From Verrucomicrobiota bacterium (GTDB taxonomy: Bacteria > Verrucomicrobiota > Verrucomicrobiia > Limisphaerales > SIBE01), in the NCBI GenBank assembly GCA_040754135.1, contig JBFMDG010000150.1, forward strand, positions 1 to 12,138: a stretch of DNA of 12,138 nucleotides, in the 5' to 3' direction. Each line of letters opens with the position of its first letter. Within the stretch, counting starts at the first letter, position 1. Both the position numbers and the translations under genes were made by a program. Positions 1-11,750 of the stretch are shown here, in pieces. The notes under the pieces were generated by a model that was given only the letters and a program-made list of their open reading frames with translations, was not told the origin of the DNA and did not search any database.

Positions 1-72
1 CGCCTGGCGGCCTCGAGTCTCGGCATCAAGCGTCTTTACGAAGCCAAGAAGACGCGCGGCTTATTCCCCTGA
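1..72 (+). CDS. Possible 3' end of an upstream gene that runs off the window edge (...LAASSLGIKRLYEAKKTRGLFP*)
   Basis: Frame 1 is open from the window edge to TGA at 70-72. The peptide has protein-like composition. There is no start in the window, so only the C-terminus would be present. Not in the ORF track because it lacks an in-window start. Confidence 0.2.
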   Translation, partial: RLAASSLGIKRLYEAKKTRGLFP

Positions 73-118
73 TCGCTCCTCGATATTTTGCACCTGAATC
101 TCCGCGGACGTTGCCGCA

Positions 119-1219
119 TTGTTTTCCGTGTTTCGCGTTATTTTTCATCTGGACATGGATGCATTCTACGCGTCGGTCGAGCAGCGTGATCGGCCTGAAC
201 TGCGCGGGAAACCGGTGATCGTCGGCGCGCCGGCCGATCAACGCGGCGTGGTGTGCGCGGCCAGTTACGAGGCGCGCAAATTCGGCGTCCGCTCGGCCAT
301 GCCCAGCCGCACCGCCCAACGACTTTGTCCGAACGGCATCTTCATCCGGCCCCGCATGGATTTTTATCGCGCGGAATCGCACGCCATCATGGAAATTGTC
401 CGGCGCACCGGCGCCACCATCGAGCAGGTCTCCATCGATGAGGCGTATCTCGATTTCTCCGCCCAATGCCAGGCCGCCAATCCGGATGAAAGCCTGCAAC
501 GCGCTCTGCCTCTGGGCCGCCGCTTGAAACAAACCATCTATTCCAGCCGCCGCCTCACCACGAGCATCGGCATCGCTTCCAACAAGCTCCTGGCGAAAAT
601 TGCCAGCGACCATCAAAAGCCGGATGGACTGACGCTCATTCTTGAAAGTCAAAAGGTCGCCTTTCTTCGCCCCATGCCCGTGCGCGCCATTCATGGCGTG
701 GGCAAAGTGACCGAACAAGTGCTGCAAAACGCGGGTCTCAGCACGATTGGCGATCTGCAGGATCACCGCGGCGACTTGCGGGCGTTGGTCGGTTCTTTCG
801 GACCGGTCTTGAAACGATTTGCTTTGGGAGAAGATGATCGGCCGCTCGAATTGGGCGAGGAGATCAAAAGCATCAGCAGCGAGAACACATTCCTGAAAGA
901 CACTGACGATCGAAAAGTGCTGCGAGCCTGTCTGCGCGAACAGGCGGCCGAGATTGCTGGCAAACTGCAGCGCCATCGGCTGGGCGCACGCACTGTGCAG
1001 GTGAAGATTCGTTACGGCGACTTCACGACCCTGACGCGCCAGGTGACGTTGGAAGAGCCGGTCACCGAAGCTGCGGAGATTTACCGAATGGGCTGTTATC
1101 TTTTGGGCCGGGAAAGGCTGGTGAACCGGCCGTTGCGTTTGATCGGGCTGGGTGTGAGCACGCTGGATGAACTGCAATTGCGCCAGCTGCCCTTGCCCCT
1201 GGCTGAAAAGAATCGCTGA
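119..1219 (+). CDS. dinB: DNA polymerase IV (Y-family translesion polymerase DinB)
   Basis: The translation matches E. coli DinB along its whole length. N-terminal VIFHLDMDAFYASVEQRD corresponds to KIIHVDMDCFFAAVEMRD, with the catalytic Asp conserved. SIDEAYLD corresponds to SLDEAYLD, with the catalytic D/E conserved. Also present are YEARKFGVRSAMP, LLAKIASDHQKPDG and GVGKVT. At 366 aa the length is typical of Pol IV rather than UmuC or ImuB. The annotated start is TTG at 119. GTG at 128 (MFRVIFHLDMD, closest to the E. coli N-terminal spacing) and ATG at 155 are alternatives. No clear Shine-Dalgarno for any of them. Confidence 0.9.
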   Translation: MFSVFRVIFHLDMDAFYASVEQRDRPELRGKPVIVGAPADQRGVVCAASYEARKFGVRSAMPSRTAQRLCPNGIFIRPRMDFYRAESHAIMEIVRRTGATIEQVSIDEAYLDFSAQCQAANPDESLQRALPLGRRLKQTIYSSRRLTTSIGIASNKLLAKIASDHQKPDGLTLILESQKVAFLRPMPVRAIHGVGKVTEQVLQNAGLSTIGDLQDHRGDLRALVGSFGPVLKRFALGEDDRPLELGEEIKSISSENTFLKDTDDRKVLRACLREQAAEIAGKLQRHRLGARTVQVKIRYGDFTTLTRQVTLEEPVTEAAEIYRMGCYLLGRERLVNRPLRLIGLGVSTLDELQLRQLPLPLAEKNR

Positions 1220-1288
1220 GGCGCACAGAAAAAGTGAGAGTCGAGTTACGTCAAACCGAAGCATTCGAACGGCACCGAACATTCAACT

Positions 1289-1723
1289 TTGAAGTCGTTT
1301 TGGAACATTTTGCGGCGCGGCTTGAGGACTGGCGGGAAATTTCTTGGCCTGATCCCTTCGACCCTCGCCGCATCCAATGAAGGGAAATCACTTCGGGAAA
1401 AACGCCAGGCTGAACTCGAAAAATTCAACCAGCTGCTGGCTTCGGCGGTCAACCTGAAGCATCTGCTCGAGGAACAGATCAGGAAATTGGAAGCTGAAGA
1501 AACGCGTTGCGCGGCCCGGTTGGCGCAATCGTCCACGACCACCGAATCGAGCGTGACTGCTGAGGCCGCTTGTCGTCTGAAAAATATCCGAGCTGAACTC
1601 GGCGAGTTGCGACAGCGACTGAGCGAAGCCGCTGAAACGGTTCAAGGCGTGACCCACCTCCGCGATCAAGCCATCGCCAAAGCCCGAGCGGAACTGAAAT
1701 CGACCTCGGCTCCATCGGCTTAG
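1289..1723 (+). CDS. Hypothetical small coiled-coil protein (144 aa), possibly first gene of the NfeD-flotillin cluster
   Basis: ORF on the same strand and in the same codon phase as the downstream NfeD gene. Composition is E/K/L/A/Q-rich and alpha-helical/coiled-coil (LREKRQAELEKFNQLLASAVNLKHLLEEQIRKLEAEE..., IRAELGELRQRLSEAAETVQ). The only available start is TTG at 1289; there is no ATG or GTG between the upstream in-frame TGA at 1235-1237 and 1289. No recognisable family. It could instead be an untranslated leader. Confidence 0.33.
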   Translation: MKSFWNILRRGLRTGGKFLGLIPSTLAASNEGKSLREKRQAELEKFNQLLASAVNLKHLLEEQIRKLEAEETRCAARLAQSSTTTESSVTAEAACRLKNIRAELGELRQRLSEAAETVQGVTHLRDQAIAKARAELKSTSAPSA

Positions 1724-1801
1724 AAATGGGTCTGGTTTTTGGAATTGAGACTGGCCGGGTAGCGCTTTAGTCTTTTCGGCAAACAACAACCCGAGGCAAC
1801 T

Positions 1802-2554
1802 ATGATTGAGGTTCTTCTTGAGTCGGTTCGCCTGGTGAATCTCCCATTCACACTCCTGTTGGGGATCGTGGTTATCTACTGGTTGTTGGTCACGGTCGGC
1901 CTGCTCGACTTTGACTTTCATGCTGATGCCGGAGGCGACTTTCAAGCAGACGGAGGAGGGGCTGACGCGCATTTGCCAGAGACGGATGTACACCATTCCG
2001 CGGAACTCGCGCATTCAAACGTCGAGGGGACAACCGACCATGAGGCGGCCAGCCACAAGGCGGCGCATGGAAGCGTGGGCGTCGGTTGGTTCGCGCATCT
2101 CCTCCAATTTGTGAACATTGGCGAGGTGCCGGTGATGATTGTTCTGAGCGTTCTGGCGCTCTCCCTCTGGATCAGCTCCATGACCGTGAATCATTATCTG
2201 AATAATCATTCCGTGTTGCGCGCCTTGTTATTTCTCGGCCCGATCCTGGTGATCAGCGCCGTGATCACGCGGTATGCGACGATGCCCTTGAAAAGAATTT
2301 TTGCTCTGCTCAATCGCGAGCAGGACGAATACAAATCGCTCATCGGGCAATCGTGCATTGTCACGACCAGTGAAATCACGCGGGACTTTGGACAAGCGCA
2401 GATCGAGACGCGCGGGGCGCCCTTGTTGATCAATGTGCGCGCCGCCGAGGAAGAGCCGCTGCGCAAAGGCGAGACGGCTTTGGTGGTTCGCGAGGATAAA
2501 CAAAAAAATGTCTATTATGTGGTCAAAGTGACCGCAGACAAACTGGAGGCCTGA
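1802..2554 (+). CDS. yqiJ: NfeD-like membrane protein of the short YqiJ/DUF1449 type (flotillin-associated, C-terminal OB-fold)
   Basis: ATG at 1802 is preceded by GAGG 8-11 nt upstream. Predicted TM helices are LVNLPFTLLLGIVVIYWLLVTVGLL, VPVMIVLSVLALSLWISSMTV and LRALLFLGPILVISAVITRYA. The C-terminal ~70 aa (GQSCIVTTSEITRDFGQAQIETRGAPLLINVRAAEEEPLRKGETALVVREDKQKNVYYVVKV) has the beta-rich pattern of the NfeD C-terminal OB-fold. The gene sits directly upstream of, and is translationally coupled to, a YqiK-type flotillin, as in the E. coli yqiJ-yqiK operon. The symbol is assigned by analogy of architecture and synteny, not by a strong remembered alignment. Confidence 0.75.
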   Translation: MIEVLLESVRLVNLPFTLLLGIVVIYWLLVTVGLLDFDFHADAGGDFQADGGGADAHLPETDVHHSAELAHSNVEGTTDHEAASHKAAHGSVGVGWFAHLLQFVNIGEVPVMIVLSVLALSLWISSMTVNHYLNNHSVLRALLFLGPILVISAVITRYATMPLKRIFALLNREQDEYKSLIGQSCIVTTSEITRDFGQAQIETRGAPLLINVRAAEEEPLRKGETALVVREDKQKNVYYVVKVTADKLEA

Positions 2555-2556
2555 TT

Positions 2557-4632
2557 ATGTTCCTATTCATTGACGTGCTGCTCGGCATCGGCGGATTGAT
2601 TTTCGCCGCTATCATGGTGCTCGGAATTATCAGCGTGGTGAAATGTTTCCGGAAAGTGGAGCAGGGGAGGGCGATTGTGCGCAACGGCATGGGCGGAACC
2701 AAAGTATCCTTTTCCGGCATTGTCGTTTTTCCCATCATTCACCAGGCGGAAATCATGGATATCTCTGTGAAACGGGTCGAGATCGATCGCAATGGAAAAA
2801 ATGGATTGATCTGCATGGATAACATGCGCGCGGATATCAAAGTCGCTTTCTTCGTGCGCGTGAATCAAACGCCGGAGGACGTCCTCAAAGTCGCGCAATC
2901 GGTCGGATGCGCCCGCGCTTCGAGCCAGGAAGCCATAGTCGAACTGTTCGACGCCAAATTCTCAGAAGCGCTCAAGACGGTCGGCCGCCAGTTCCAGTTT
3001 GTGGACCTCTACAATTCCCGCGAGAAACTGAAGGAAGGCATTTTGAAATTGATCGGCACCGATTTGAACGGATTTGTGCTCGAAGACGTGGCCATCGATT
3101 ATCTGGAACAAACCCCGGTCAACCTGCTCAATCCCGACAACATTCTCGATTCCGAGGGCATTAAAAAGATTACCGAATTGACGGCCACACAGAAGGTGCT
3201 CTCGAACAAAATCGACAACGACCGGGAGAAGACCATTACGAAGCAGAACGTTGAAGCCAAGGAAGCGATCCTGGAAATGCACAAACAGCTCGCCGAAGCC
3301 GAGGAAAAGCAAAAGCGCGAGGTGGCAACGATTCGCGCGCGCGAAGAAGCCGAAGCCAAAAAAGTCGAGCAGGAACAGCGGCTCAAGGCCGAGCAGGCCC
3401 GCATTGCCGTCGAGGAAGAACTGCAAGTGGCCGACCAAAACAAGGATCGCCAGATTGTCGTGGCCCAACGCAATAAGGAACGAACCGACGCGGTTGAAAA
3501 GGAACGGGTCGAGAAAGATCGAATGCTCGAGGTGACGGAGCGGGAGCGGCTGGTGACGCTGGCGCGGATTGCTCGCGACCGGGAAATCGAAACCAACCAA
3601 AAGGAGATTCAGAACGTGATTCGCGAGCGCCTCGAAGTGGAAAAGACGGTGGTGCAGGAACAGCAACGGATCAAAGATACGGAGGCATTTGCCAACGCCG
3701 ATCGGGAAAAGAAAGTGGCCGTGACGGCGGCCGAGAAAGAGGCGGAAGCGGCGCTGGTCAAGGGGATCAAAGCCGCGGAAGCAGCCAGGCGCGCCGCGGA
3801 AATCAAGGCCGAGCAGGATTTGCTGACGACCGTGCGACATGCCGAAGCGGAGAAACAGGCCGCCGAACGTTTCGCTCAACAACGATTGATTCAAGCCGAG
3901 GCCGAAGAGGCGGCGGCGATGAAATTGGCCACGGCCAAAAAACAACTGGCCGAAGCCACGGCCGCCGAATCCGCAGCGACCGGATTAGGAGAGGCGCGGG
4001 TGCTCGAGGCCAAAGCCGCGGCCATTGAAAAGCAAGGCACCGCCGAAGCCAATGTGGCGGAATTGAAATTCTCCGCTGAAGCCAAAGGAATTCGCGACAA
4101 GGCTGAAGCCATGAAACAGTTTCACGAAGCCGGACGCGATCATGAAGAGTTCAAGCTCCGTCTTCACAAAGAGCGCGATATCGAATTGGCCGCCATTCAC
4201 GCCAGTGAACAAATCGCCGAAAACCAGGCGCTGGTGCTTTCCGAAGCGATGAAAAGCGCGAAAATCGAAATCGTCGGTGGCGACACCCAGTTCTTTGATC
4301 GCATCGTCAGCGCCGTGAGCACGGGCAAAGCGGTCGATCGCCTCGTGCAGAACAGCGCGACATTGAGTGACGTTAAGGAAACGTTTTTCAACAGCGACCC
4401 GGATTATTTCAAGCAACAGTTGCGAACGTTCATCGATCAGTTCGGGCTGACAACGGAGGATTTGAAAAACCTGACCATTTCGGCGGCGCTCGGCCAGATG
4501 ATGTCATTGGCGGACGATCCGAAAACGCGCGGCTTGCTGGGAGCATTGCAAGGCCACGCCAAACGAGTCGGATTGGCGGACAAGATGGCTTCGTTGCTCG
4601 CCAAAACGGACGGCGAAAAAGTGGGGAACTAA
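2557..4632 (+). CDS. yqiK: Flotillin-like SPFH/band-7 protein (YqiK/FloT type), 691 aa
   Basis: GGAGG lies 9 nt upstream, and the ATG is 2 nt after the NfeD stop. There is an N-terminal membrane anchor (MFLFIDVLLGIGGLIFAAIMVLGIISVV). The SPFH core matches E. coli YqiK closely: IVRNGMGGTKVSFSGIVVFPIIHQAEI corresponds to FVRTGLGGQKVVMSGGAIVMPIFHEI. DNMRADIKVAFFVRVNQTPEDVLKVAQSVG corresponds to DRMRVDVVVAFFVRVKPSVEGIATAAQTLG. NPDNILDSEGIKKITELTA corresponds to NPNNAFDAEGLTKLTQETE. This is followed by the flotillin-type EA-rich coiled coil. Confidence 0.93.
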   Translation: MFLFIDVLLGIGGLIFAAIMVLGIISVVKCFRKVEQGRAIVRNGMGGTKVSFSGIVVFPIIHQAEIMDISVKRVEIDRNGKNGLICMDNMRADIKVAFFVRVNQTPEDVLKVAQSVGCARASSQEAIVELFDAKFSEALKTVGRQFQFVDLYNSREKLKEGILKLIGTDLNGFVLEDVAIDYLEQTPVNLLNPDNILDSEGIKKITELTATQKVLSNKIDNDREKTITKQNVEAKEAILEMHKQLAEAEEKQKREVATIRAREEAEAKKVEQEQRLKAEQARIAVEEELQVADQNKDRQIVVAQRNKERTDAVEKERVEKDRMLEVTERERLVTLARIARDREIETNQKEIQNVIRERLEVEKTVVQEQQRIKDTEAFANADREKKVAVTAAEKEAEAALVKGIKAAEAARRAAEIKAEQDLLTTVRHAEAEKQAAERFAQQRLIQAEAEEAAAMKLATAKKQLAEATAAESAATGLGEARVLEAKAAAIEKQGTAEANVAELKFSAEAKGIRDKAEAMKQFHEAGRDHEEFKLRLHKERDIELAAIHASEQIAENQALVLSEAMKSAKIEIVGGDTQFFDRIVSAVSTGKAVDRLVQNSATLSDVKETFFNSDPDYFKQQLRTFIDQFGLTTEDLKNLTISAALGQMMSLADDPKTRGLLGALQGHAKRVGLADKMASLLAKTDGEKVGN
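2650..3232 (+). other. SPFH (band 7 / stomatin-prohibitin-flotillin-HflKC) domain of the flotillin
   Basis: This is the region of closest similarity to the YqiK/FloT SPFH core (residues ~32-225 of the ORF). Boundaries are approximate. Confidence 0.7.
3232..4240 (+). other. Extended Glu/Ala/Lys/Arg/Gln-rich coiled-coil (flotillin EA-repeat) region, ~330 residues, compositionally biased
   Basis: Continuous heptad-like, charged, low-complexity sequence (EAKEAILEMHKQLAEAEEKQKREVATIRAREEAEAKKVEQEQRLKAEQARIAVEEEL...AEAEKQAAERFAQQRLIQAEAEEAAAMKLATAKKQLAEATAAESAA). At the nucleotide level there are many reiterated GCCGAAGC/GAAGCC motifs. Boundaries are approximate. Confidence 0.65.
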
Positions 4633-4635
4633 ACG

Positions 4636-4654
4636 GCGCCCGTGGCGCGGGCGC
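4636..4654 (+). promoter_or_regulatory. GC-only stem-loop (7-bp stem GCGCCCG / CGGGCGC, 5-nt loop) in the flotillin-to-giant-gene junction, followed by a (GC)5 tract and alternative pairings
   Basis: Read directly from the sequence. 4636-4642 GCGCCCG, loop 4643-4647 TGGCG, 4648-4654 CGGGCGC. An alternative stem is GCGGGC (4647-4652) with GCCCGC (4667-4672). Alternating GCGCGCGCGC runs 4651-4660. There is no T-tract, so it is not an intrinsic terminator. The hairpin overlaps the GTG candidate start at 4642 and precedes the ATG candidate at 4693. Function is inferred. Confidence 0.4.
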
Positions 4655-7600
4655 GCGCGCAAGCGGCCCGCGCTTACGAATGCACCAGGCTGATGTCCAC
4701 CGAGACCAGAGCATCGACGAATTCCGAAGCCGGTCCCCCGCAATTGGATCAGGGCACCTACGAAATCCTGCGGGCGCGGCTTTCTTCCCACGCCAGCGAT
4801 CTCCGCGTTCGCCTCGAACAACTCAATCGAGCGCGGCAGGATGTTTTCGGATCCATTCCCACGCTCCTTCTTGCGACGGAGCGGATCAGCACCGCGAATA
4901 ACTGCATCGCGCGCGATATCGTGCCGATTGGCCAGGGGCGGTTTCTTTTCGGTTACAACGTCCACCTCGGTTTAAGGAGCGAAACCAAACTCGAAGACGT
5001 GTTTGGGGTTTATCGGCTCGAAGGCCATCATTTCCGGGAACTGCCTTTGGACGCGGTGGGCGATCCCCAATTCGCCGCTGATTTCAAAAATCTTTACCGC
5101 TATTACAAACACGCGGTCTTCTCGCGCTTCGCCCTTATTGGTCCCGCGTTATTCATGGAGTTCCGCGTCGGAAAAAATGTCGATGACATCAAGACGTTCA
5201 AATGGATTTGCCAGCAGGAGGAATTCGTTTATGTGGGCAATCGATTCGATCACGAGTACGGGTACCCAGCGCAGCACGAATTCCAATGGACGCGCGCCCA
5301 TCGCGAACTGCACCGGCACGGTTTGCATCCGCACATCAGCATCGAAGACCGCGTCTTTGTGGAATGCATTGGCGGCGACCTCACCATCAAGGTCGAGGAC
5401 AATACCGACAGTGGAGAAGGAATTTATGCGGAGCCGGTGGATCATCGCGATCAAACGCTCGATGACGCCGAAGTGTTCTATTCGATTGTCGGGAGCCTTG
5501 TGCTGCTCAAGATCCGGCCGTATGCGGAGAAAGCATTTCGTTATTTGGTTTTCAACGAAAAGCTGAAGCAGGTGCAGCGGATCGATGCCATTGCCGATTC
5601 GTGCGTGCTGCTGCCGTCGGATCAGGGAATCCTCTTTTCGCGCGGCTATTATCTGCAAAGCGGCGAGTTCAAGCTGTTTGAAACCCAGCTGACGGAGATG
5701 ATGTTTTACAAACGGATTGCCGCGCCCAACGGCGAGGATTATCTCTTCGCGTTTTATAATCGGGAGCGAGGGCAATACGTTTTGCTTTCTTACAACGTCA
5801 TCGCGCGCACGCTCGAAACGCCCATCATTTGCGGAGGGTTTTCCCTCTTTGAGAATGGCGAGATGGCCGTTTTCCGCGCGACGGCAGAGCCGCAACGCCA
5901 TCACGTGATTCAAATCTGGCAAACGCCTTTCGTTGGACCCGGATGGCAGCCGGAGGTGCAAAGCGAAAGTTACCTTTCCAAACTTGGCAATCCGGCCATC
6001 GTCCGCTGCATGGCGGAGTGCCAGGAAATTTTGACCCTCAGTGCAAAAGAGGATTCCTACGCGGGACTCTATTTTGACCTGGTGAAAAAAACCGGGGATG
6101 TCCTCGACAGTTACTTCTGGCTCGATCGGCCAGAAGTGTTCGGGTTGAAAGCGCCGCTGGTCGAGATCAGCAAGGCAGCATCGGCGGCGCTGGCGGAATT
6201 TGAAAAAGTATCCAGCCTGCGCCGCTCCGCCGCGCTCGAAGTGGCCCGTGTCACCGCCAAAGCCGCTGATCTGCTCCGCGGCATCGCCAATGAAAAATTC
6301 ACGTCGCTGCAACAGTACGTGCATCGCTTGCGTGAATTGCGCGCCATGAGGGGCGAACTGGTTTCGACCAAAGATCTGCGCTACGCCGATGCCGCAGCTT
6401 TGGCCAAGAGCGAAGAGGCGGTGGCCAGCTCGGCGGCAAAGCTCGCGGAGCAAACCGTCGAGTTTCTGTTGCAGCCCGATGCGCTGAATCCGTTTCGTGA
6501 TCGCGCTGCGGCCGTGACATCCGCTGTGCCGCGCCTGGGCAAGGTGACTGAAGCCAAAGCACTCGAGGAGGAAATGAACGCCGCTGGCCAGGAGCTGGAC
6601 CTGCTCATCGAGACCTTGACCAATCTTTCGCTGCGTGACGCGACCGAGACGACGCGCATTGTGGAAGGCATCACCGCGATTTATTCCGTGCTCAACCAGG
6701 GACGAGCCGCGTTGAAAAATCGAATCCGGGAATTGCGCGGCGCCGAAGCCGTGGCCGAGTTTGCCTCGCAATTGCGGCTGCTCGATCAGGCATTGGCCAA
6801 TTACCTCGATTTGTGCGTCACCCCGGAAAAGTGCAGCGAATATTTGAACCGGATGCTGGTGCAGGTCGAGGAACTGGAAGCGCGATTTGCCGATTTTGAT
6901 GAATTCGTGGTGCAGTTGGGAGAAAAGCGAACGGCTTTGGCCGGGGCATTTGAAGCGCGCAAACTGGATCTGATCGAATCGAGAAATCGGAAAGCGGGAG
7001 CACTGTTCACCACCGCCGAAAGGATTCTCAAATCGATACGCTACCGCGCCGAACGGCTGCCTTCGACCGAGGAAATCAATGCTTATTTTGCCTCCGATCA
7101 GATGGTGGAAAAGGTCCGCAACCTCATCGATCAACTCCTGGAATTGGGGGATAGCGGGAAAGCCGACGATGTCCAAAGCCAGCTCAAAACCATTCATCAG
7201 AATGCGCTGCGCCAATGGAAGGACCGGCACGAGCTCTTTGCTGCGGGAACGGATTTGATCCAGCTGGGACGGCATCAGTTCCTCGTCAACACGCAGGAGC
7301 TCGATCTGACGATTGTCCCGCGCGGTGAGCAAATGTGCCTGCATCTGACCGGGACCGGATTGTTCGAACCGATCGAGGATCCGGCCTTCGCGGCCACGCG
7401 CCCGGTCTGGCATCTCGAATCGGTCGCGGAAACGCCGCACATTTATCGCGCGGAATATCTCGCTTACAAATGTTTTGAACAGCTCCAAAAACAGGGCCGC
7501 CTCTGGAACGAGGAAACGGCTGCGGACGGTTCTCGGCCGGAATCGGCGCCGGCGCTCGAAGGGGAGGAGCTTTTGGCATTGACCCGTGATTTCATGGCGC

Positions 7601-9924
7601 CGCGCTACGGCGAGGGATATGTCAAAGGGGTGCATGACCAGGACGCCGCACACATTCTCCGGGCGCTGGTCGAGCTTCACGGGTGCATTGGACTGCTTCG
7701 ATATCACACGCGCGCCCGTGCGCTCGGAACGGTCTTCTGGCAATTGCTTCCCGAAAGCGATCTCAAGGCGCTCATCGCGGCCAAACTGCGCGGCTTCGGC
7801 ACGATGAAAAAACTTTTCCCCGGCGAGCAAACCCAGCCGAGCTACATCGCTGAACTCGAAGCGATGATTCGCCAATGGATTGGAAGCAGCGGCTTGTTCG
7901 AAGAGAAATGGGCTGGCGAGGCCGCCGAGTATCTCTATTTCCAGTTGAAGTTCGAAGCGGATCAATGCGTCGCCAGCCCTGATGCGGCGGAGCTGGTCGA
8001 ACGTTTCGAACTGCACCTGGCCGCGCGCCGCTTTCACGACGCTTTCCGCGCTGCCCGCAAAGCCGTCGAAACCGATCCCGCCAGTCACTTCCAATTGCTC
8101 CGCGATTGGATGACCGGTTTCATCAATGCTCTGGGGCGCGATCCGGAATTGCCCGCGGAACTGGCGGGTCGCGCTGAATTCATCGATGAAGCGGCGGGGA
8201 TGCTTCTGCGCGGTTCGCATTTGCGGAACCGGGTTGTGCACGCGTCTCTCGAACGCGCGGTTGAAGGTCTGCTGGGAAATCATCCTCGAATTCAGAACGG
8301 GCGTTTGCCGGTGCATTACGTCGAGTTCATGCATCGATTGCGGGCCCATGACAATAATTGCGTTCCGCTCTTTCAACAATGTCAGCTCCTGAAAAAGGAA
8401 CAGGTCGAGGCCGGCCGCCTGCGCCTGCGCCTGGACGATTTCCGGCCGCGCGTGCTCACCTCCTTTGTGCGGAACCGCCTCATCGATTCAGTTTACCTCC
8501 CGCTCATCGGCGACAACCTGGCCAAGCAAATCGGCGCCGCCGGAGAGGCCAAAAGAACCGATCGCATGGGCTTGCTGCTGCTGATTTCCCCTCCAGGTTA
8601 CGGAAAAACAACTCTCCTGGAATACATCGCTCACCGGCTCGGGCTGGTCTTCGTCAAAATCAACAGCCCCGCCCTGGGCCAGCGCGTCGTCTCCCTCGAT
8701 CCCGCCGAAGCGCCCAACGCCGCCGCGCGCGAGGAACTCGACAAACTCAATCTCGCCTTCGAGATGGCCGACAATGTCATGGTCTGCCTGGATGACATTC
8801 AGCACGCGAATCCGGAATTTTTGCAGAAATTCATCAGCCTCTGCGATGGACAGCGCCGAATCGAAGGCGTTTATCGCGGGCATCCGCGCACCTACGATCT
8901 CCGCGGCAAACGTTTCGTGGTCACCATGGCGGGAAATCCCTACACGGAAAGTGGCGAGAAATTCCGCGTTCCGGACATGCTGGCCAACCGCGCCGACACC
9001 TACAATTTGGGCGACGTCCTCGGCGGCCATCAGGAGGCGTTCCAGCTCAGTTACCTCGAAAATGCCGCAGGCTCAAATCCGTGGCTTGCCGAGGTGGTGA
9101 ATCGCGCTCCCAAGGATCTTTACGAAATCATCCGCCTCGCCCAGCACCTTCCCTCGGAAGGCGCATTTGAAGCCAACTGGTCTGCCGAACAACTCGCAGA
9201 ATTTATCGAGGTGATGAAAAAGCTGGCCAGAGTTCGCGACGTGGCGTTGCGCGTAAATGAGGAATACATCCGAAGCGCGGCCCAATCCGATATTTACCGA
9301 ACCGAGCCTCCGTTCAAATTGCAAGGCAGTTACCGGAACATGAATCGGTTGGCCGAAAAAATTTCGCCGATCATGAATGACGACGAAATTCGCACGCTCG
9401 TGCAGGATCATTATCGCAATGAAGCGCAAACTCTCGCGCAAGGGGCCGAGGCCAATTTGCTGAAATTCAAGGAATTGACCGGCACGCTCACTCCCAAAGA
9501 AACCGCGCGCTGGGAAGAAATCAAAAAGGCATTTCGCAAACACCTGCTCTTCCGCGGTGCGGACGCTCAAGATCCCGTTTCCCAGGTCGTGCAACAACTC
9601 TCTGGCTTCGCCGACGGCCTTGAATCGATCAAGGAAGTGATCGCCGCCGGGATCAAAACGGCCAGCGCTCCCATGGCTCCGCCAGTAATTCCTGTGACGA
9701 TGATTATTGCCGAAAACGGCCGGACGTCAGCTCCATCCACGGCGCCGGAACAAGGTCCACCGCTCTCGTGCGTTGCATTGCCGGTCACGGGCGCGTCCGA
9801 ACGCGTCCGCGAAGTTCGCATCACCAACGACACCCTCCAGCGCATCTGGGAACTGATCGAGAACGATCCGATCTCAAATGCCAATGCGGAGGAGACGGGT
9901 AGGGAGGAAGGGTTGAAGAGTTGA
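4642..9924 (+). CDS. Giant (1,760 aa) protein with an uncharacterised ~1,280-aa N-terminal region and a single C-terminal MoxR/dynein-clade AAA+ ATPase module. Resembles the large bacterial/eukaryotic proteins usually auto-annotated 'DNA repair ATPase-like' (DUF3686-type); assignment unverified
   Basis: Uninterrupted 5.28-kb ORF on the operon strand. Start is either GTG 4642, 9 nt after the flotillin stop, or in-frame ATG 4693. The single P-loop is LLLLISPPGYGKTTLLEYIAHRLGL (8587-8613). The Walker-B-like strand is NVMVCLDDIQ (~8776-8796). RFVVTMAGNPYTESGEKFRVPDMLANRADTYNLGD has the same spacing and character as the MoxR/RavA/dynein FxVxATQNPxE...LPxAxLDRF motif. No other GxxxxGK[ST] occurs in the protein. 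No TM segments. Confidence 0.85.
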   Translation: MARARAQAARAYECTRLMSTETRASTNSEAGPPQLDQGTYEILRARLSSHASDLRVRLEQLNRARQDVFGSIPTLLLATERISTANNCIARDIVPIGQGRFLFGYNVHLGLRSETKLEDVFGVYRLEGHHFRELPLDAVGDPQFAADFKNLYRYYKHAVFSRFALIGPALFMEFRVGKNVDDIKTFKWICQQEEFVYVGNRFDHEYGYPAQHEFQWTRAHRELHRHGLHPHISIEDRVFVECIGGDLTIKVEDNTDSGEGIYAEPVDHRDQTLDDAEVFYSIVGSLVLLKIRPYAEKAFRYLVFNEKLKQVQRIDAIADSCVLLPSDQGILFSRGYYLQSGEFKLFETQLTEMMFYKRIAAPNGEDYLFAFYNRERGQYVLLSYNVIARTLETPIICGGFSLFENGEMAVFRATAEPQRHHVIQIWQTPFVGPGWQPEVQSESYLSKLGNPAIVRCMAECQEILTLSAKEDSYAGLYFDLVKKTGDVLDSYFWLDRPEVFGLKAPLVEISKAASAALAEFEKVSSLRRSAALEVARVTAKAADLLRGIANEKFTSLQQYVHRLRELRAMRGELVSTKDLRYADAAALAKSEEAVASSAAKLAEQTVEFLLQPDALNPFRDRAAAVTSAVPRLGKVTEAKALEEEMNAAGQELDLLIETLTNLSLRDATETTRIVEGITAIYSVLNQGRAALKNRIRELRGAEAVAEFASQLRLLDQALANYLDLCVTPEKCSEYLNRMLVQVEELEARFADFDEFVVQLGEKRTALAGAFEARKLDLIESRNRKAGALFTTAERILKSIRYRAERLPSTEEINAYFASDQMVEKVRNLIDQLLELGDSGKADDVQSQLKTIHQNALRQWKDRHELFAAGTDLIQLGRHQFLVNTQELDLTIVPRGEQMCLHLTGTGLFEPIEDPAFAATRPVWHLESVAETPHIYRAEYLAYKCFEQLQKQGRLWNEETAADGSRPESAPALEGEELLALTRDFMAPRYGEGYVKGVHDQDAAHILRALVELHGCIGLLRYHTRARALGTVFWQLLPESDLKALIAAKLRGFGTMKKLFPGEQTQPSYIAELEAMIRQWIGSSGLFEEKWAGEAAEYLYFQLKFEADQCVASPDAAELVERFELHLAARRFHDAFRAARKAVETDPASHFQLLRDWMTGFINALGRDPELPAELAGRAEFIDEAAGMLLRGSHLRNRVVHASLERAVEGLLGNHPRIQNGRLPVHYVEFMHRLRAHDNNCVPLFQQCQLLKKEQVEAGRLRLRLDDFRPRVLTSFVRNRLIDSVYLPLIGDNLAKQIGAAGEAKRTDRMGLLLLISPPGYGKTTLLEYIAHRLGLVFVKINSPALGQRVVSLDPAEAPNAAAREELDKLNLAFEMADNVMVCLDDIQHANPEFLQKFISLCDGQRRIEGVYRGHPRTYDLRGKRFVVTMAGNPYTESGEKFRVPDMLANRADTYNLGDVLGGHQEAFQLSYLENAAGSNPWLAEVVNRAPKDLYEIIRLAQHLPSEGAFEANWSAEQLAEFIEVMKKLARVRDVALRVNEEYIRSAAQSDIYRTEPPFKLQGSYRNMNRLAEKISPIMNDDEIRTLVQDHYRNEAQTLAQGAEANLLKFKELTGTLTPKETARWEEIKKAFRKHLLFRGADAQDPVSQVVQQLSGFADGLESIKEVIAAGIKTASAPMAPPVIPVTMIIAENGRTSAPSTAPEQGPPLSCVALPVTGASERVREVRITNDTLQRIWELIENDPISNANAEETGREEGLKS
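8540..9110 (+). other. AAA+ ATPase module of the giant protein (P-loop 8587-8613, Walker-B-like LDD 8788-8796, NP-Y-E sensor/helix-2-insert-clade motif ~8911-8949, Arg-rich RADTYN ~8990-9010)
   Basis: Motifs read directly from the translation (see parent CDS). Boundaries are approximate. Confidence 0.7.
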
Positions 9925-9942: not shown

Positions 9943-10152
9943 GTGAGGAGCGCTGAGCGATTTTGCGGCGCCGAAGAGGGCGATGGGAATTCGTCATGTC
10001 TGAGGTCGGAGGGGCACTCGGGTTCCGGGCAGCCAGTACATCACTGTGGAAGGAACTCGAACACCAAAGCGGAAGTGAAAGATAAGATTAGATTGCGCAT
10101 TATGGTTCGGCTAAAGTCCGAGCCCAGATGGTCTGCCCCAGTTTGTTTATGA
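9943..10152 (+). CDS. Doubtful small ORF (69 aa) in the spacer, in the same frame as the giant gene; its TGA overlaps the cotH ATG (ATGA)
   Basis: GTG start, with no similarity to anything I recognise. Its frame is the giant gene's frame, continued past a single TGA (9922-9924) with no further stop until 10150-10152. Most likely a chance open frame in the promoter/leader region of cotH. Confidence 0.12.
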   Translation: MRSAERFCGAEEGDGNSSCLRSEGHSGSGQPVHHCGRNSNTKAEVKDKIRLRIMVRLKSEPRWSAPVCL

Positions 10153-10208
10153 GACGATTTTTATGGCTCTGGCTCGGGTGTGTGACCCTGTGCCGCGCGT
10201 ACTCCGCG
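10149..10208 (+). other. Predicted Sec signal peptide of the CotH protein (MRRFLWLWLGCVTLCRAYSA | SGAG)
   Basis: Positively charged n-region (RR), hydrophobic h-region, and an A-x-A-like c-region. The cleavage position is estimated by eye. Confidence 0.5.
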
Positions 10209-11750
10209 AGCGGAGCGGGCGATGCCATTTTCACGAATGCCACCGTATTCCGGATCGAAATCGAAATTCCCCCTTCCGGCATCAGCACTCTGCGTCGCTC
10301 CGGCTGGGGAGGTGGCGACGAATCGCGCCCGACAGTCAAAGCCACCGTTCGCGAGGGCGGCCGCGCTTTCACCAACGTGGCCGTCCATTTGAAAGGGGCG
10401 GCCGGGAGTTTCCGTCCGATCGATCATAATCCTTGTTTCACGCTCAACTTCGACAAGTTTGTACCCGGCCAGAGTTTTCATGGACTGGAAAAGTTTTCCC
10501 TGAACAATTCCGTGCAAGATCCTTCCTACCTTTCTGAACGCATTTGCCGGGAATTATTTTTGAAGGCAGGTGTGCCGGTGCCGCGAGCGGCGCATGCCAC
10601 TGTTTCGCTGAACGGCCGCAAGCTCGGTCTTTACGTCCTCACCGAGGGTTACAACAAACAATTCCTCAAACGCCATTTCAAAAATGTCAGCGGGAATTTG
10701 TATGACGGCGGCTTCGTCAAGGAAATCACCGAATCGCTTTCCATCAACTCCGGAGATCAGACGGACGATCACAGCGGCATGCGCGCGTTGATAGCCGCCG
10801 CGCGCGAGGCCGATCCGAAAACACGATTGGCGCGGTTCGAGAAAGTGCTTGATATGGAGCGCTTCTACTCGTTCGTGGCCATGGAAGTGATGCAATGCCA
10901 TTGGGACGGCTACGCCATGAACCGGAATAACTACCGGATCTTTCATGACAAAGAATCGAACAAGATGGTGTTCTTTCCGCATGGTCTCGACCAGATGTTT
11001 GGTGTCGAGCGGACAACCCCGGATTGTGAAATCCTGCCGCATTTTGAAGGGTACATCGCCCGATCCATTTTGAGCACGCAGCAAGGCCGCAAGCTTTACA
11101 AGGAACGAATGACGCAACTGCTGACCAACGTGCTCACCGTGCCGGCAATACATCGCCGCATCGATGAACTGGCCGCTCTCATTCGGCCGGTGTTTGGTCC
11201 GGAACCGCATTTCGGCAGCGCGCGGCATTGGGACGGTGAAGTGCGTTATCTGAAACAACGCATCCAGCAGCGGGCGGAAAGCTTGCGGCGACAGTTGAAT
11301 CCACCACCGATGCCCTCCTCGGGCGTGCGCGGGCAAGTCCCGCGTCTGATGCATTGGCAACCGCGCGTTCACGGTGGCGATCCAAGATTCGAAGAACGCA
11401 CCGATAACGGCCAGTCGGTTTTGCTCATTCACTCGCCACAAACAGACGTGCTCGCTTCCTGGCGCACACGCGTGACGCTCACTCCGGGCTTTTACAGTTT
11501 TAAAGGCAAAATTCGGACGAAAAAAGTCGAGCCCGCCGCTGAATCAGACGAGCAGAGTGGGGCGGGCTTGCGGATTTCCGGCGGATCACCTTTGCCTGAG
11601 TTGAGCGGCACAGCCGATTGGCGCGAGTTCACTTACCCATTTCAGGTCGGGGACGCAGGAACGAGTGTGGAATTGATCTGTGAACTGCGCGGCGCCAAAG
11701 GAGAAGCCTTGTTTGATCGCGCCTCCTTGAGAATTGAACCGGCGGAATAA
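10149..11750 (+). CDS. Secreted CotH-family protein (spore-coat-protein-H-like atypical kinase fold)
   Basis: The central region has the characteristic CotH pattern (KAGVPVPRAAHATVSLNGRKLGLYVLTEGYNKQFLKRHF...GNLYDGG...MERFYSFVAMEVMQCHWDGYAMNRNNYRIFHDKESNKMVFFPHGLDQMFG). ATG 10149 gives a classical signal peptide (MRRFLWLWLGCVTLCRAYSA). ATG 10128 is an in-frame alternative that adds 7 aa. The stop is TAA 11748-11750. Confidence 0.85.
   Translation: MRRFLWLWLGCVTLCRAYSASGAGDAIFTNATVFRIEIEIPPSGISTLRRSGWGGGDESRPTVKATVREGGRAFTNVAVHLKGAAGSFRPIDHNPCFTLNFDKFVPGQSFHGLEKFSLNNSVQDPSYLSERICRELFLKAGVPVPRAAHATVSLNGRKLGLYVLTEGYNKQFLKRHFKNVSGNLYDGGFVKEITESLSINSGDQTDDHSGMRALIAAAREADPKTRLARFEKVLDMERFYSFVAMEVMQCHWDGYAMNRNNYRIFHDKESNKMVFFPHGLDQMFGVERTTPDCEILPHFEGYIARSILSTQQGRKLYKERMTQLLTNVLTVPAIHRRIDELAALIRPVFGPEPHFGSARHWDGEVRYLKQRIQQRAESLRRQLNPPPMPSSGVRGQVPRLMHWQPRVHGGDPRFEERTDNGQSVLLIHSPQTDVLASWRTRVTLTPGFYSFKGKIRTKKVEPAAESDEQSGAGLRISGGSPLPELSGTADWREFTYPFQVGDAGTSVELICELRGAKGEALFDRASLRIEPAE

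Follow-up and report, generated by a model that had tools for sequence, protein, structure and literature searches.

Flotillins, PspA and the operon type described so far

Bacterial flotillins and PspA have both been implicated in the organisation and repair of membranes, and PspA is the bacterial homologue of ESCRT-III. To our knowledge, neither has a known ATP-consuming partner outside PspF regulation. According to a 2025 review, a Vps4-like ATPase appears to be absent in bacteria (PMC7619361). An operon type in which flotillin, PspA and an ATPase are encoded together has already been described computationally by Ravi et al. (mSystems 2024, PMC11237479; preprint 2020). It comprises CesT/Tir-PspA, a YqiJ/YuaF protein, a TM-Band7-CC-flotillin and a "beta-propeller + coiled-coil + AAA+" ATPase, as in the neighbourhood of Dokdonia donghaensis ANH61663.1, and abbreviated operons without PspA are mentioned as well. 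The operon was read in terms of membrane dynamics and linked to the PspA membrane-stress system as its partner, in a single paragraph that contains no clade assignment for the ATPase, no linkage statistics and no experiments. No experimental work on any operon member was found in the literature, and the literature search returned neither a mention of DUF3686 nor a link between MoxR and SPFH proteins.

The window analysed here, a stretch of 12,138 nucleotides from a Verrucomicrobiota bacterium, holds a further example of this operon type, known from 2020/2024. The statement of the first-pass annotation that no system of this composition had been described does not stand, as section 19 and Table S3 of PMC11237479 describe it. 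The same core proteins are encoded in the same order, YqiJ-like protein, flotillin and giant AAA+ protein: a three-TM protein of the YqiJ/YuaF type lies directly upstream of a flotillin that combines TM segment, Band-7 (SPFH) domain, coiled coil and flotillin-type C-terminus, and downstream of the flotillin follows a protein with an AAA+ module and a long helical/coiled region. This giant is orthologous to those of Bacteroidota operons of the published type; its orthologues from Flavobacteriia/Bacteroidota stand in operons that match the published layout exactly, down to the divergent HTH-protease gene, and the full layout is seen in Bacteroidota and Teredinibacter loci. The window differs in that it contains no CesT/Tir gene and that its PspA-like ORF is truncated, so that it fits the abbreviated form of the operon, with a remnant or short form of PspA.

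Organisation of the locus

Four ORFs follow each other on the + strand, at 1289-1723, 1802-2554, 2557-4632 and 4642-9924. The last of them, in its longest form, starts with GTG at 4642 and encodes 1760 aa, but the ATG at 4693 is the likelier start judging from its sequence relatives, since the public gene model (P0001, 100% identity) has 1743 aa and the N-termini of family members align to this ATG. Only 2 nt separate the NfeD stop codon (2552-2554) from the flotillin ATG (2557), and these two back-to-back genes are probably translationally coupled. The flotillin stop codon (4630-4632) is followed after 9 nt by the GTG, or after 60 nt by the ATG. The resulting 60-nt spacer (4633-4692, + strand) contains a GC-rich hairpin at 4636-4654 without a U-tract, whose folding energy is unexceptional (MFE -39.4 kcal/mol, z -1.5). 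A pattern scan found no terminator-like site on the + strand in either the NfeD/flotillin or the flotillin/giant spacer; all + strand matches (1894, 2116, 2576 and 5732) lie within ORFs, and the total of 17 matches equals the level of shuffled sequences (17.3 expected). The ORF coordinates, tight spacing and absence of terminators in the first-pass annotation were thus reproduced. Taken with their conservation, the NfeD, flotillin and giant genes, hereafter the triad, almost certainly constitute a single conserved module, co-transcribed and co-functional.

The first gene of the triad (1802-2554, + strand, ATG start) encodes a short NfeD protein of the YqiJ/YuaF type, of 250 aa, with three hydrophobic segments near residues 4-40, 100-130 and 136-161 that are followed by a C-terminal OB-like domain. 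Its own match to Pfam YqiJ_N is weak (E 0.04), and a profile of 52 NfeD orthologues aligns with E. coli YqiJ across the TM and the OB parts alike (E 1.3e-12), which agrees with the identity initially given to it. The second gene (2557-4632, + strand, ATG start) encodes a YqiK-type flotillin of 691 aa, consisting of a TM segment (1-34), an SPFH domain (~30-200), a Glu/Ala/Lys-rich coiled coil (~200-565) and a C-terminal domain (566-691; nt 4252-4629). The window flotillin itself has no direct match to Pfam Band_7 or Flot, and the orthologues of loci L064 and L089 exceed the Band_7 cutoff. Its assignment, also made in the first-pass annotation, is upheld by its similarity to E. coli YqiK, seen both in BLASTP (421 aa aligned at 30% identity, E 3e-47) and in the profile comparison (2e-73), and close relatives bear the names flotillin or YqiK at NCBI and JGI. 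Its AF2 model is poor (pLDDT 57), and the secondary structure shows a long helical region. The C-terminal domain is specific to the subfamily: all giant-linked flotillins carry it, without a match to Pfam Flot, and YqiK lacks it.

The PspA-like ORF

Upstream of the triad, the + strand ORF at 1289-1723 (TTG start, 144 aa) occupies the position of PspA. In BLASTP it aligns collinearly with PspA_IM30 proteins encoded beside the triad in other loci, with 33% identity to that of L093 (E 8e-12) and 31% to that of L001 (E 1e-10), and it was the sole tblastn match among 85 coiled-coil-rich loci. The aligned part covers the N-terminal amphipathic helix and the first ~135 aa of PspA, and ~110 C-terminal residues are missing. 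Sequence similarity thus suggests, with moderate confidence, a truncated or short PspA-like protein; the confidence is moderate because the ORF is matched neither by Pfam nor by the PspA HMM/hhalign comparison, in which the HMM was dominated by Bacteroidota.

PspA is a conserved extra partner of the triad that the first-pass annotation had missed. The order CesT_Tir_1, PspA_IM30, NfeD, flotillin and giant is found in 17 Bacteroidota loci, and in Teredinibacter the order is DUF2170, PspA, NfeD, flotillin and giant. PspA adjoins the triad in L001, L089 and L093, and in L088 it lies ~6 kb downstream of the giant gene. In most loci of Verrucomicrobiota and Planctomycetota it is not adjacent, which, together with the truncation of the window ORF, indicates that PspA may be dispensable for the triad.

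The giant AAA+ protein

The third gene of the triad (4693-9924, + strand) encodes a giant cytosolic ATPase of 1743 aa. Its DUF3686 domain (nt 4798-6117), which shows no self-repeat signal, is followed from nt 6478 by DUF7902 and long, spectrin-like helical repeats. Behind these come a small beta domain, an alpha-helical domain and the AAA+ module, and at the C-terminus a helical domain and a disordered tail. Walker A and AAA/AAA_5 are each matched once, so that the single AAA+ module first proposed is corroborated. Walker A (SPPGYGKTT, aa 1299-1307, nt 8587-8613) is invariant in alignments of 30 and 84 sequences. In the same alignments, Walker B (LDDIQH, aa 1366-1371, nt 8788-8805) invariably shows Asp-Asp where Asp-Glu is usual, which could point to a slow or regulatory turnover of ATP instead of motor activity. 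The region at 8926-8997 includes MAGNP (N1415) and the LANRAD motif (R1433), whose columns are invariant in both alignments and which, by analogy with MoxR motifs, we take to be sensor-1 and a candidate arginine finger, respectively. The AAA+ core is of the MoxR/dynein type, with a pre-sensor-1 beta-hairpin, and structurally it is nearest to the MoxR-type proteins CbbQ/NorQ, dynein and midasin, not to the classical FtsH/Vps4 clade. No TM segment was detected in the giant, those of the triad being confined to NfeD and flotillin, and searches of Pfam and NCBIfam revealed no protease or peptidase domain in it.

Conservation of the triad

Linkage was counted in related loci with enough upstream DNA, from Verrucomicrobiota, Planctomycetota, Bacteroidota, Desulfobacterota, Kiritimatiellota, Clostridia, Binatia, Gammaproteobacteria and unclassified metagenomic contigs. 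In 62 of 65 loci the giant gene is directly preceded, in the same orientation, by a flotillin orthologue, so that this is not a two-gene NfeD-flotillin unit but one with a conserved giant third, and an NfeD gene is also present in 55 of 60. The exceptions L018, L021 and L056 encode a giant without flotillin despite ample upstream DNA. Reciprocally, a DUF3686 giant follows all three members of the flotillin subfamily that were checked. Since the gene order is the same in so many loci, the linkage of the giant with flotillin and NfeD is not due to chance; the first-pass annotation had posed these neighbourhoods as a refutation test, and the outcome is strongly positive. The three genes of the triad are passed on together in at least ten phyla and are retained in unclassified metagenomic contigs at 27-28% identity. 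Among neighbour clusters, PspA and CesT/Tir are the only recurrent extra partners. The remaining flanking genes are housekeeping genes that differ from lineage to lineage, and in some cases the operon contains insertions of small selfish genes (DUF559, IS200-like, PDDEXK_3).

Proposed function and alternative readings

The model that we favour, by a little more than an even chance, is that the locus is a PspA-associated, flotillin-type operon for membrane stress and remodelling, in which a platform is served by a MoxR/dynein-like remodelling ATPase. NfeD and flotillin would together build an oligomeric platform at the inner membrane, facing the cytoplasm, and the giant would be recruited to this platform, the C-terminal domain exclusive to giant-linked flotillins being the candidate docking site. 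During envelope stress, the giant would spend ATP in assembling, remodelling or disassembling polymers of flotillin and/or of PspA (ESCRT-III-like), or the clients bound to them. A bolder proposal, possible yet doubtful, is that bacterial ESCRT-III (PspA) and/or flotillin domes have in the DUF3686 giant their missing ATP-driven remodeller, a mechanoenzyme of the dynein/MoxR type that docks on the flotillin C-terminal domain and drives the assembly or disassembly of membrane-repair scaffolds. If true, the giant would correspond to Vps4 in function, with an AAA+ module of another clade, and would be conserved in at least ten bacterial phyla.

It may also be argued, with a lower likelihood, that the flotillin/NfeD microdomain is a holdase that confines unfolded or damaged membrane-associated proteins, and that the giant is an ATP-driven chaperone that extracts, refolds or inserts them, its substrates being these clients rather than the scaffold or PspA. 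The proximity of its AAA+ module to the MoxR-type chaperones CbbQ and NorQ points in this direction, the large non-ATPase region of DUF3686 and helical repeats could bind clients, and a precedent exists in S. aureus, where FloA-NfeD is reported to stabilise unfolded proteins independently of ATP (PMC11222466; also cited in PMC13086221). Against this reading, the recurrent neighbour clusters contain neither a VWA gene nor any other gene typical of MoxR partners or clients. The model of the first-pass annotation, in which flotillin would cage the giant as its client or motor much as HflK/C cages FtsH, draws on the joint encoding of SPFH and AAA+ proteins and on the established SPFH cages around AAA+ proteases (PMC13220708). 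The analogy is weakened by the absence of both a TM segment and a protease domain from the giant and by the MoxR/dynein/midasin-like character of its AAA+ module, and we consider it improbable.

An anti-phage or abortive-infection system, with a scaffold in the membrane and an NTPase as sensor, might be suspected from the selfish genes at times found inside the operon, and since defence islands often hold large multi-domain NTPases beside membrane proteins. Nevertheless, none of the three proteins has a meaningful match in PADLOC-DB v2 (the best is P-loop-only, E >= 7e-4), the neighbours are housekeeping and lineage-variable, and persistence in many phyla with divergence down to 27% identity indicates long-term retention, unlike a mobile island, which makes this reading very unlikely. 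Scarcely credible is that the giant is a DNA-repair ATPase, as it is called in the Pfam description of DUF3686 and in NCBI product names, and that its proximity to the Y-family polymerase gene upstream in the window (dinB, 119-1219) is meaningful: nuclease, helicase and DNA-binding domains were not detected in it, its similarity to RuvB is confined to the P-loop region, dinB is conserved beside no other locus, and the conserved neighbours encode membrane proteins. The label "DNA repair ATPase" on thousands of database entries is therefore probably wrong.

Compared with PMC11237479, what is new here is the numbers for linkage in both directions, the assignment of the ATPase to the MoxR/dynein type with an invariant Asp-Asp Walker B, the C-terminal domain of giant-linked flotillins as a candidate docking site, and the evidence against the DNA-repair label. 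Encoded almost always beside a flotillin and an NfeD protein dedicated to it, and frequently beside PspA as well, the giant is an obvious candidate for a Vps4-like ATP-consuming role, and it is present in cultivable, partly genetically tractable genera (Flavobacterium, Hymenobacter, Tenacibaculum, Hahella, Teredinibacter and Symmachiella).

Comparison with known systems

E. coli yqiJ-yqiK and B. subtilis yuaF-floT have homologous NfeD-type and flotillin genes, adjacent and in the same order. As first stated and as inspection of the locus bears out, the canonical E. coli yqiJ-yqiK has no third ATPase gene; moreover, YqiK has the Pfam Flot domain, whereas giant-linked flotillins end in a domain of different sequence and are ~140 aa longer. 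HflK/HflC with FtsH, and prohibitins with the m-AAA protease, likewise tie an SPFH scaffold functionally to an AAA+ enzyme. However, FtsH is a TM-anchored zinc protease of the classical AAA+ clade, with TM helices and an M41 peptidase, whereas the giant is soluble and MoxR/dynein-like, and topology and genetic organisation differ from the triad as well. MoxR proteins such as CbbQ, NorQ and RavA have ~300 aa and VWA-domain partners, and relative to the AAA_5 modules of the MoxR family, dynein and midasin the giant has ~1,280 extra N-terminal residues and the Asp-Asp Walker B. In B. subtilis pspA-ydjGHI, SPFH and PspA are also hard-wired, with small integral-membrane helper proteins, and the membrane recruitment of PspA depends on the SPFH protein YdjI (PMC8581546), but there is no AAA+ component and YdjI belongs to a different SPFH subfamily. 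As for ESCRT-III and Vps4, the giant is not a classical-clade AAA+ protein with an N-terminal MIT domain, as Vps4 is; still, an AAA+ protein encoded in an operon beside PspA invites a Vps4-like role in disassembly.

Organization and conservation of the NfeD–flotillin–ATPase unit

In the window, a 12,138-bp contig from a Verrucomicrobiota metagenome-assembled genome, the genes for NfeD (YqiJ-type, 250 aa; ORF call, 1802-2554, +), a flotillin (YqiK-type, 691 aa; ORF call, 2557-4632, +) and a giant AAA+ ATPase containing DUF3686 (ORF call, 4642/4693-9924, +; 1760 aa from a GTG or 1743 aa from an ATG start) constitute one operon-like unit, whose products are two scaffold proteins anchored in the membrane and a giant ATPase that is soluble. 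This arrangement had been proposed in a first-pass annotation made from the sequence, and it is confirmed, together with the spacers claimed there, of 2 nt from the NfeD to the flotillin gene and of 9 nt (GTG) or 60 nt (ATG) 5' of the giant gene. ATG 4693 is a better start than GTG 4642, because it agrees with the public 1743-aa gene model and with the aligned N-termini of 29 relatives. The proposed absence of terminators also holds for the spacers, where a pattern scan gave no terminator-like site on the + strand; those few that the scan matched within ORFs are as frequent as chance predicts (17 versus 17.3 in shuffles). A GC-rich inverted repeat with 7 GC pairs (4636-4654), placed directly 3' of the flotillin stop and overlapping the alternative GTG start, was considered as an attenuator and rejected, as it has no U-tract and its stability is ordinary for its composition (z -1.5 versus shuffles). 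Rfam gave no match in the window at gathering thresholds.

Upstream, the ORF at 119-1219 (+) encodes a Y-family (DinB-like) DNA polymerase with IMS (E 3.5e-50), IMS_HHH and IMS_C domains. Since this assignment is clear, the antisense ORF 26-1282(-), which is longer and heads a naive ORF list but has no family, is regarded as spurious. dinB is not a kept neighbour of the module in other loci, and neither is the CotH kinase-like gene found about 200 nt 3' of the giant gene (10128-11750, +; ORF and family match, E 4.9e-39).

A search of 1.84 billion representatives with the first 1200 residues of the giant yielded 435 clusters at the 50% identity level (E <= 1e-30). With one genome taken per GTDB species, at least 581 relatives were confirmed and the best 80 loci were kept; presence and absence were counted by tblastn and HMM, since the greedy longest-ORF caller took antisense ORFs within some flotillin genes. 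Among these best 80 loci, a flotillin orthologue lies directly 5' of the giant gene and on the same strand in 62 of the 65 with at least 2.6 kb of upstream DNA, and an NfeD gene precedes the flotillin gene in 55/60 of the flotillin-bearing loci. These linkage counts exclude chance adjacency, and therefore one outcome that the first-pass annotation had named as its own refutation, giant homologues lying never or only randomly beside SPFH and NfeD genes, did not materialize. In the reverse direction, all three flotillins picked from a flotillin search have a DUF3686 giant encoded next to them on the downstream side. The triad is also present in Binatia, Symmachiella and Teredinibacter, and it is kept in members whose giant is just 27-28% identical to that of the window.

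The sole clear exceptions among the 65 loci are L018, L021 and L056, which have a giant homologue and at least 7.7 kb of upstream DNA with no flotillin or NfeD gene nearby. An NfeD gene 5' of the flotillin gene was not detected in L025, L035, L038 and L053, where the flotillin is more divergent (36-42% identity), nor in L079 (51% identity); at the NfeD position, L025 carries genes of 242 and 394 aa without a Pfam family. Enlarged gaps between the flotillin and giant genes are explained by insertions of small selfish or nuclease-like genes, namely DUF559 (L020/L022/L026), an IS200-like Y1_Tnp transposase (L001/L032) and PDDEXK_3 (L037/L052), so that this spacer evidently accepts insertions, repeatedly and in different lineages, while the operon is kept. 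Among the loci there is no conserved gene 3' of the giant. In a Teredinibacter locus (L086, 15302-17256), the giant gene is followed by same-strand Rhomboid, Peptidase_M90+SEC-C and zinc-ribbon genes, possibly lineage-specific additions to the operon.

Identity of the two scaffold proteins

The 250-aa protein has three hydrophobic segments, and direct Pfam search gives only a weak match to YqiJ_N (E 0.04); the profile built from 52 orthologues aligns with E. coli YqiJ across its TM and C-terminal OB domains (E 1.3e-12). The 691-aa protein has a single TM segment, located at its N-terminus, and shares 30% identity with E. coli YqiK over 421 residues that include the whole Band_7 region (E 3e-47). 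Its profile matches YqiK with an E-value of 2e-73, or of 9.6e-39 when restricted to the SPFH part, and its close relatives are labelled 'flotillin family protein / YqiK' by NCBI and JGI. Pfam Band_7 and Flot give no direct match to the window's flotillin; the Band_7 cutoff is passed by its orthologues in L064 (49% identical) and L089. Searches against PDB sequences, with the single sequence and with the profile, gave just a weak coiled-coil match to QmcA. SPFH membership was set by sequence, because the AF2 model of the flotillin (20-sequence alignment; pLDDT 57, below 50 in the SPFH part) is unusable for fold search.

The last ~125 residues of the flotillin (aa 566-691, nt 4252-4629) form a domain that is specific to giant-linked flotillins. 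It is present in every one tested, including those of L086, L088 and L089, with E-values of 1e-12 to 1e-7 in the distant members, and it was not found in E. coli YqiK (E 5.5), which carries Pfam Flot instead. The giant, or NfeD, might dock on the domain specific to giant-linked flotillins.

The giant ATPase

The giant is 100% identical to a database protein (P0001) that is entered as 'MAG: DNA repair ATPase [Verrucomicrobiota bacterium]'. It harbors DUF3686 (E 1.7e-177), DUF7902 (1.6e-21) and one AAA/AAA_5 module, and no TM segments were found in it. The AF2 model, which covers residues 544-1743 (84-sequence alignment, mean pLDDT 82), presents long helical repeats, a small beta domain, an alpha-helical domain, the AAA+ core, a helical C-terminal domain and a disordered tail. 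The alpha/beta core is single, has a beta-hairpin that precedes the sensor-1 strand, and is of the MoxR/dynein type in its fold. Matches of the giant profile to PDB sequences reach the P-loop only, and self-comparison of DUF3686 by hhalign gave no significant signal of propeller repeats (E 0.34). Walker A reads SPPGYGKTT and Walker B LDDIQH (aa 1366-1371, nt 8788-8805); in the latter, Asp-Asp replaces Asp-Glu and is invariant across the 84 aligned members, a feature that could mean slow or regulated hydrolysis of ATP. In some Desulfobacterales members (P0085, P0096), N-terminal ankyrin repeats are fused to the DUF3686 giant, and ankyrin-repeat genes are found all around a distant locus, L088.

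PspA as a further partner

Linkage of the triad to PspA is frequent. In 17 Bacteroidota loci the order is CesT_Tir_1, PspA_IM30, NfeD, flotillin and giant, plus a divergent HTH_3 gene; Teredinibacter has DUF2170, a CesT/Tir-type domain (PMC11237479), followed by PspA and the triad, and in L093 PspA directly precedes the triad. In the Verrucomicrobiota locus L001 (3151-5750, -), a divergently oriented pair, a PspA_IM30 gene and a gene for a 559-aa classical AAA protein (PF00004), adjoins the triad, the PspA gene of L089 is convergent with the giant gene, and in L088 a PspA_IM30 gene lies ~6 kb 3' of it. Downstream in L001 there is an rtcR-Ro60-rtcB-rtcA RNA-repair cluster.

In the window, the place that PspA takes in the full operon is occupied by a coiled-coil ORF (1289-1723, +; ORF call) of 144 aa, with a TTG start and no internal Met. 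It aligns in register and free of gaps, over about residues 33-135, with the PspA proteins of L093 and L001 (E 8e-12 and 1e-10), and its N-terminal amphipathic segment resembles that of PspA; it corresponds to the first ~135 residues of those proteins, and the C-terminal ~110 are missing. It is taken, on these pairwise matches and with moderate confidence, as a truncated or short PspA-like gene, its product being a remnant of PspA or else a short protein that resembles it. Confidence is placed at that level because Pfam and the Bacteroidota-weighted PspA alignment and HMM give no significant match to it.

Proposed function and comparison with known systems

NfeD proteins are dedicated partners of SPFH proteins (PMC13086221), flotillins form large membrane-attached domes (PMC13000311), and in B. 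subtilis an SPFH protein brings PspA to the membrane (PMC8581546). We propose that NfeD and the flotillin would build a platform at the membrane, on its cytoplasmic side, and that this platform would recruit the giant. The giant may spend ATP on remodelling assemblies of flotillin and/or PspA, or else the clients of these, in envelope stress.

The likeliest of the four alternatives to this model is a holdase and ATP-chaperone arrangement working on clients; FloA-NfeD is reported to stabilize unfolded proteins without ATP (PMC11222466). Next comes the analogy with FtsH within HflKC put forward in the first-pass annotation, which is disfavoured and was not upheld, as the giant has neither TM segments nor a protease and belongs to a different AAA+ clade. 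A defence system is less probable again, since PADLOC gave nothing meaningful and the contexts are housekeeping ones that differ between lineages. Least likely is a DNA-repair ATPase: nothing supports this database label, neither a domain nor a conserved neighbour, and the giant family is probably mislabelled.

The giant family, large and widespread, can credibly be considered a candidate for the ATP-driven remodelling of flotillin/PspA scaffolds in bacteria, which apparently lack a Vps4-like ATPase for PspA (PMC7619361). Full-text literature searches gave no match for 'DUF3686', nor for 'DNA repair ATPase' with 'flotillin', and found no experimental work on this operon type. The first-pass interpretation is borne out in part: the module itself is real, and the claim that no such system had been described does not stand, because the operon layout published by Ravi et al. 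(PMC11237479) is that recovered here in Flavobacteriia, where the giants are orthologous to the one of the window. This composition has thus been published before, as a computational description alone, and the window locus is an abbreviated form of this known, experimentally untouched operon type.
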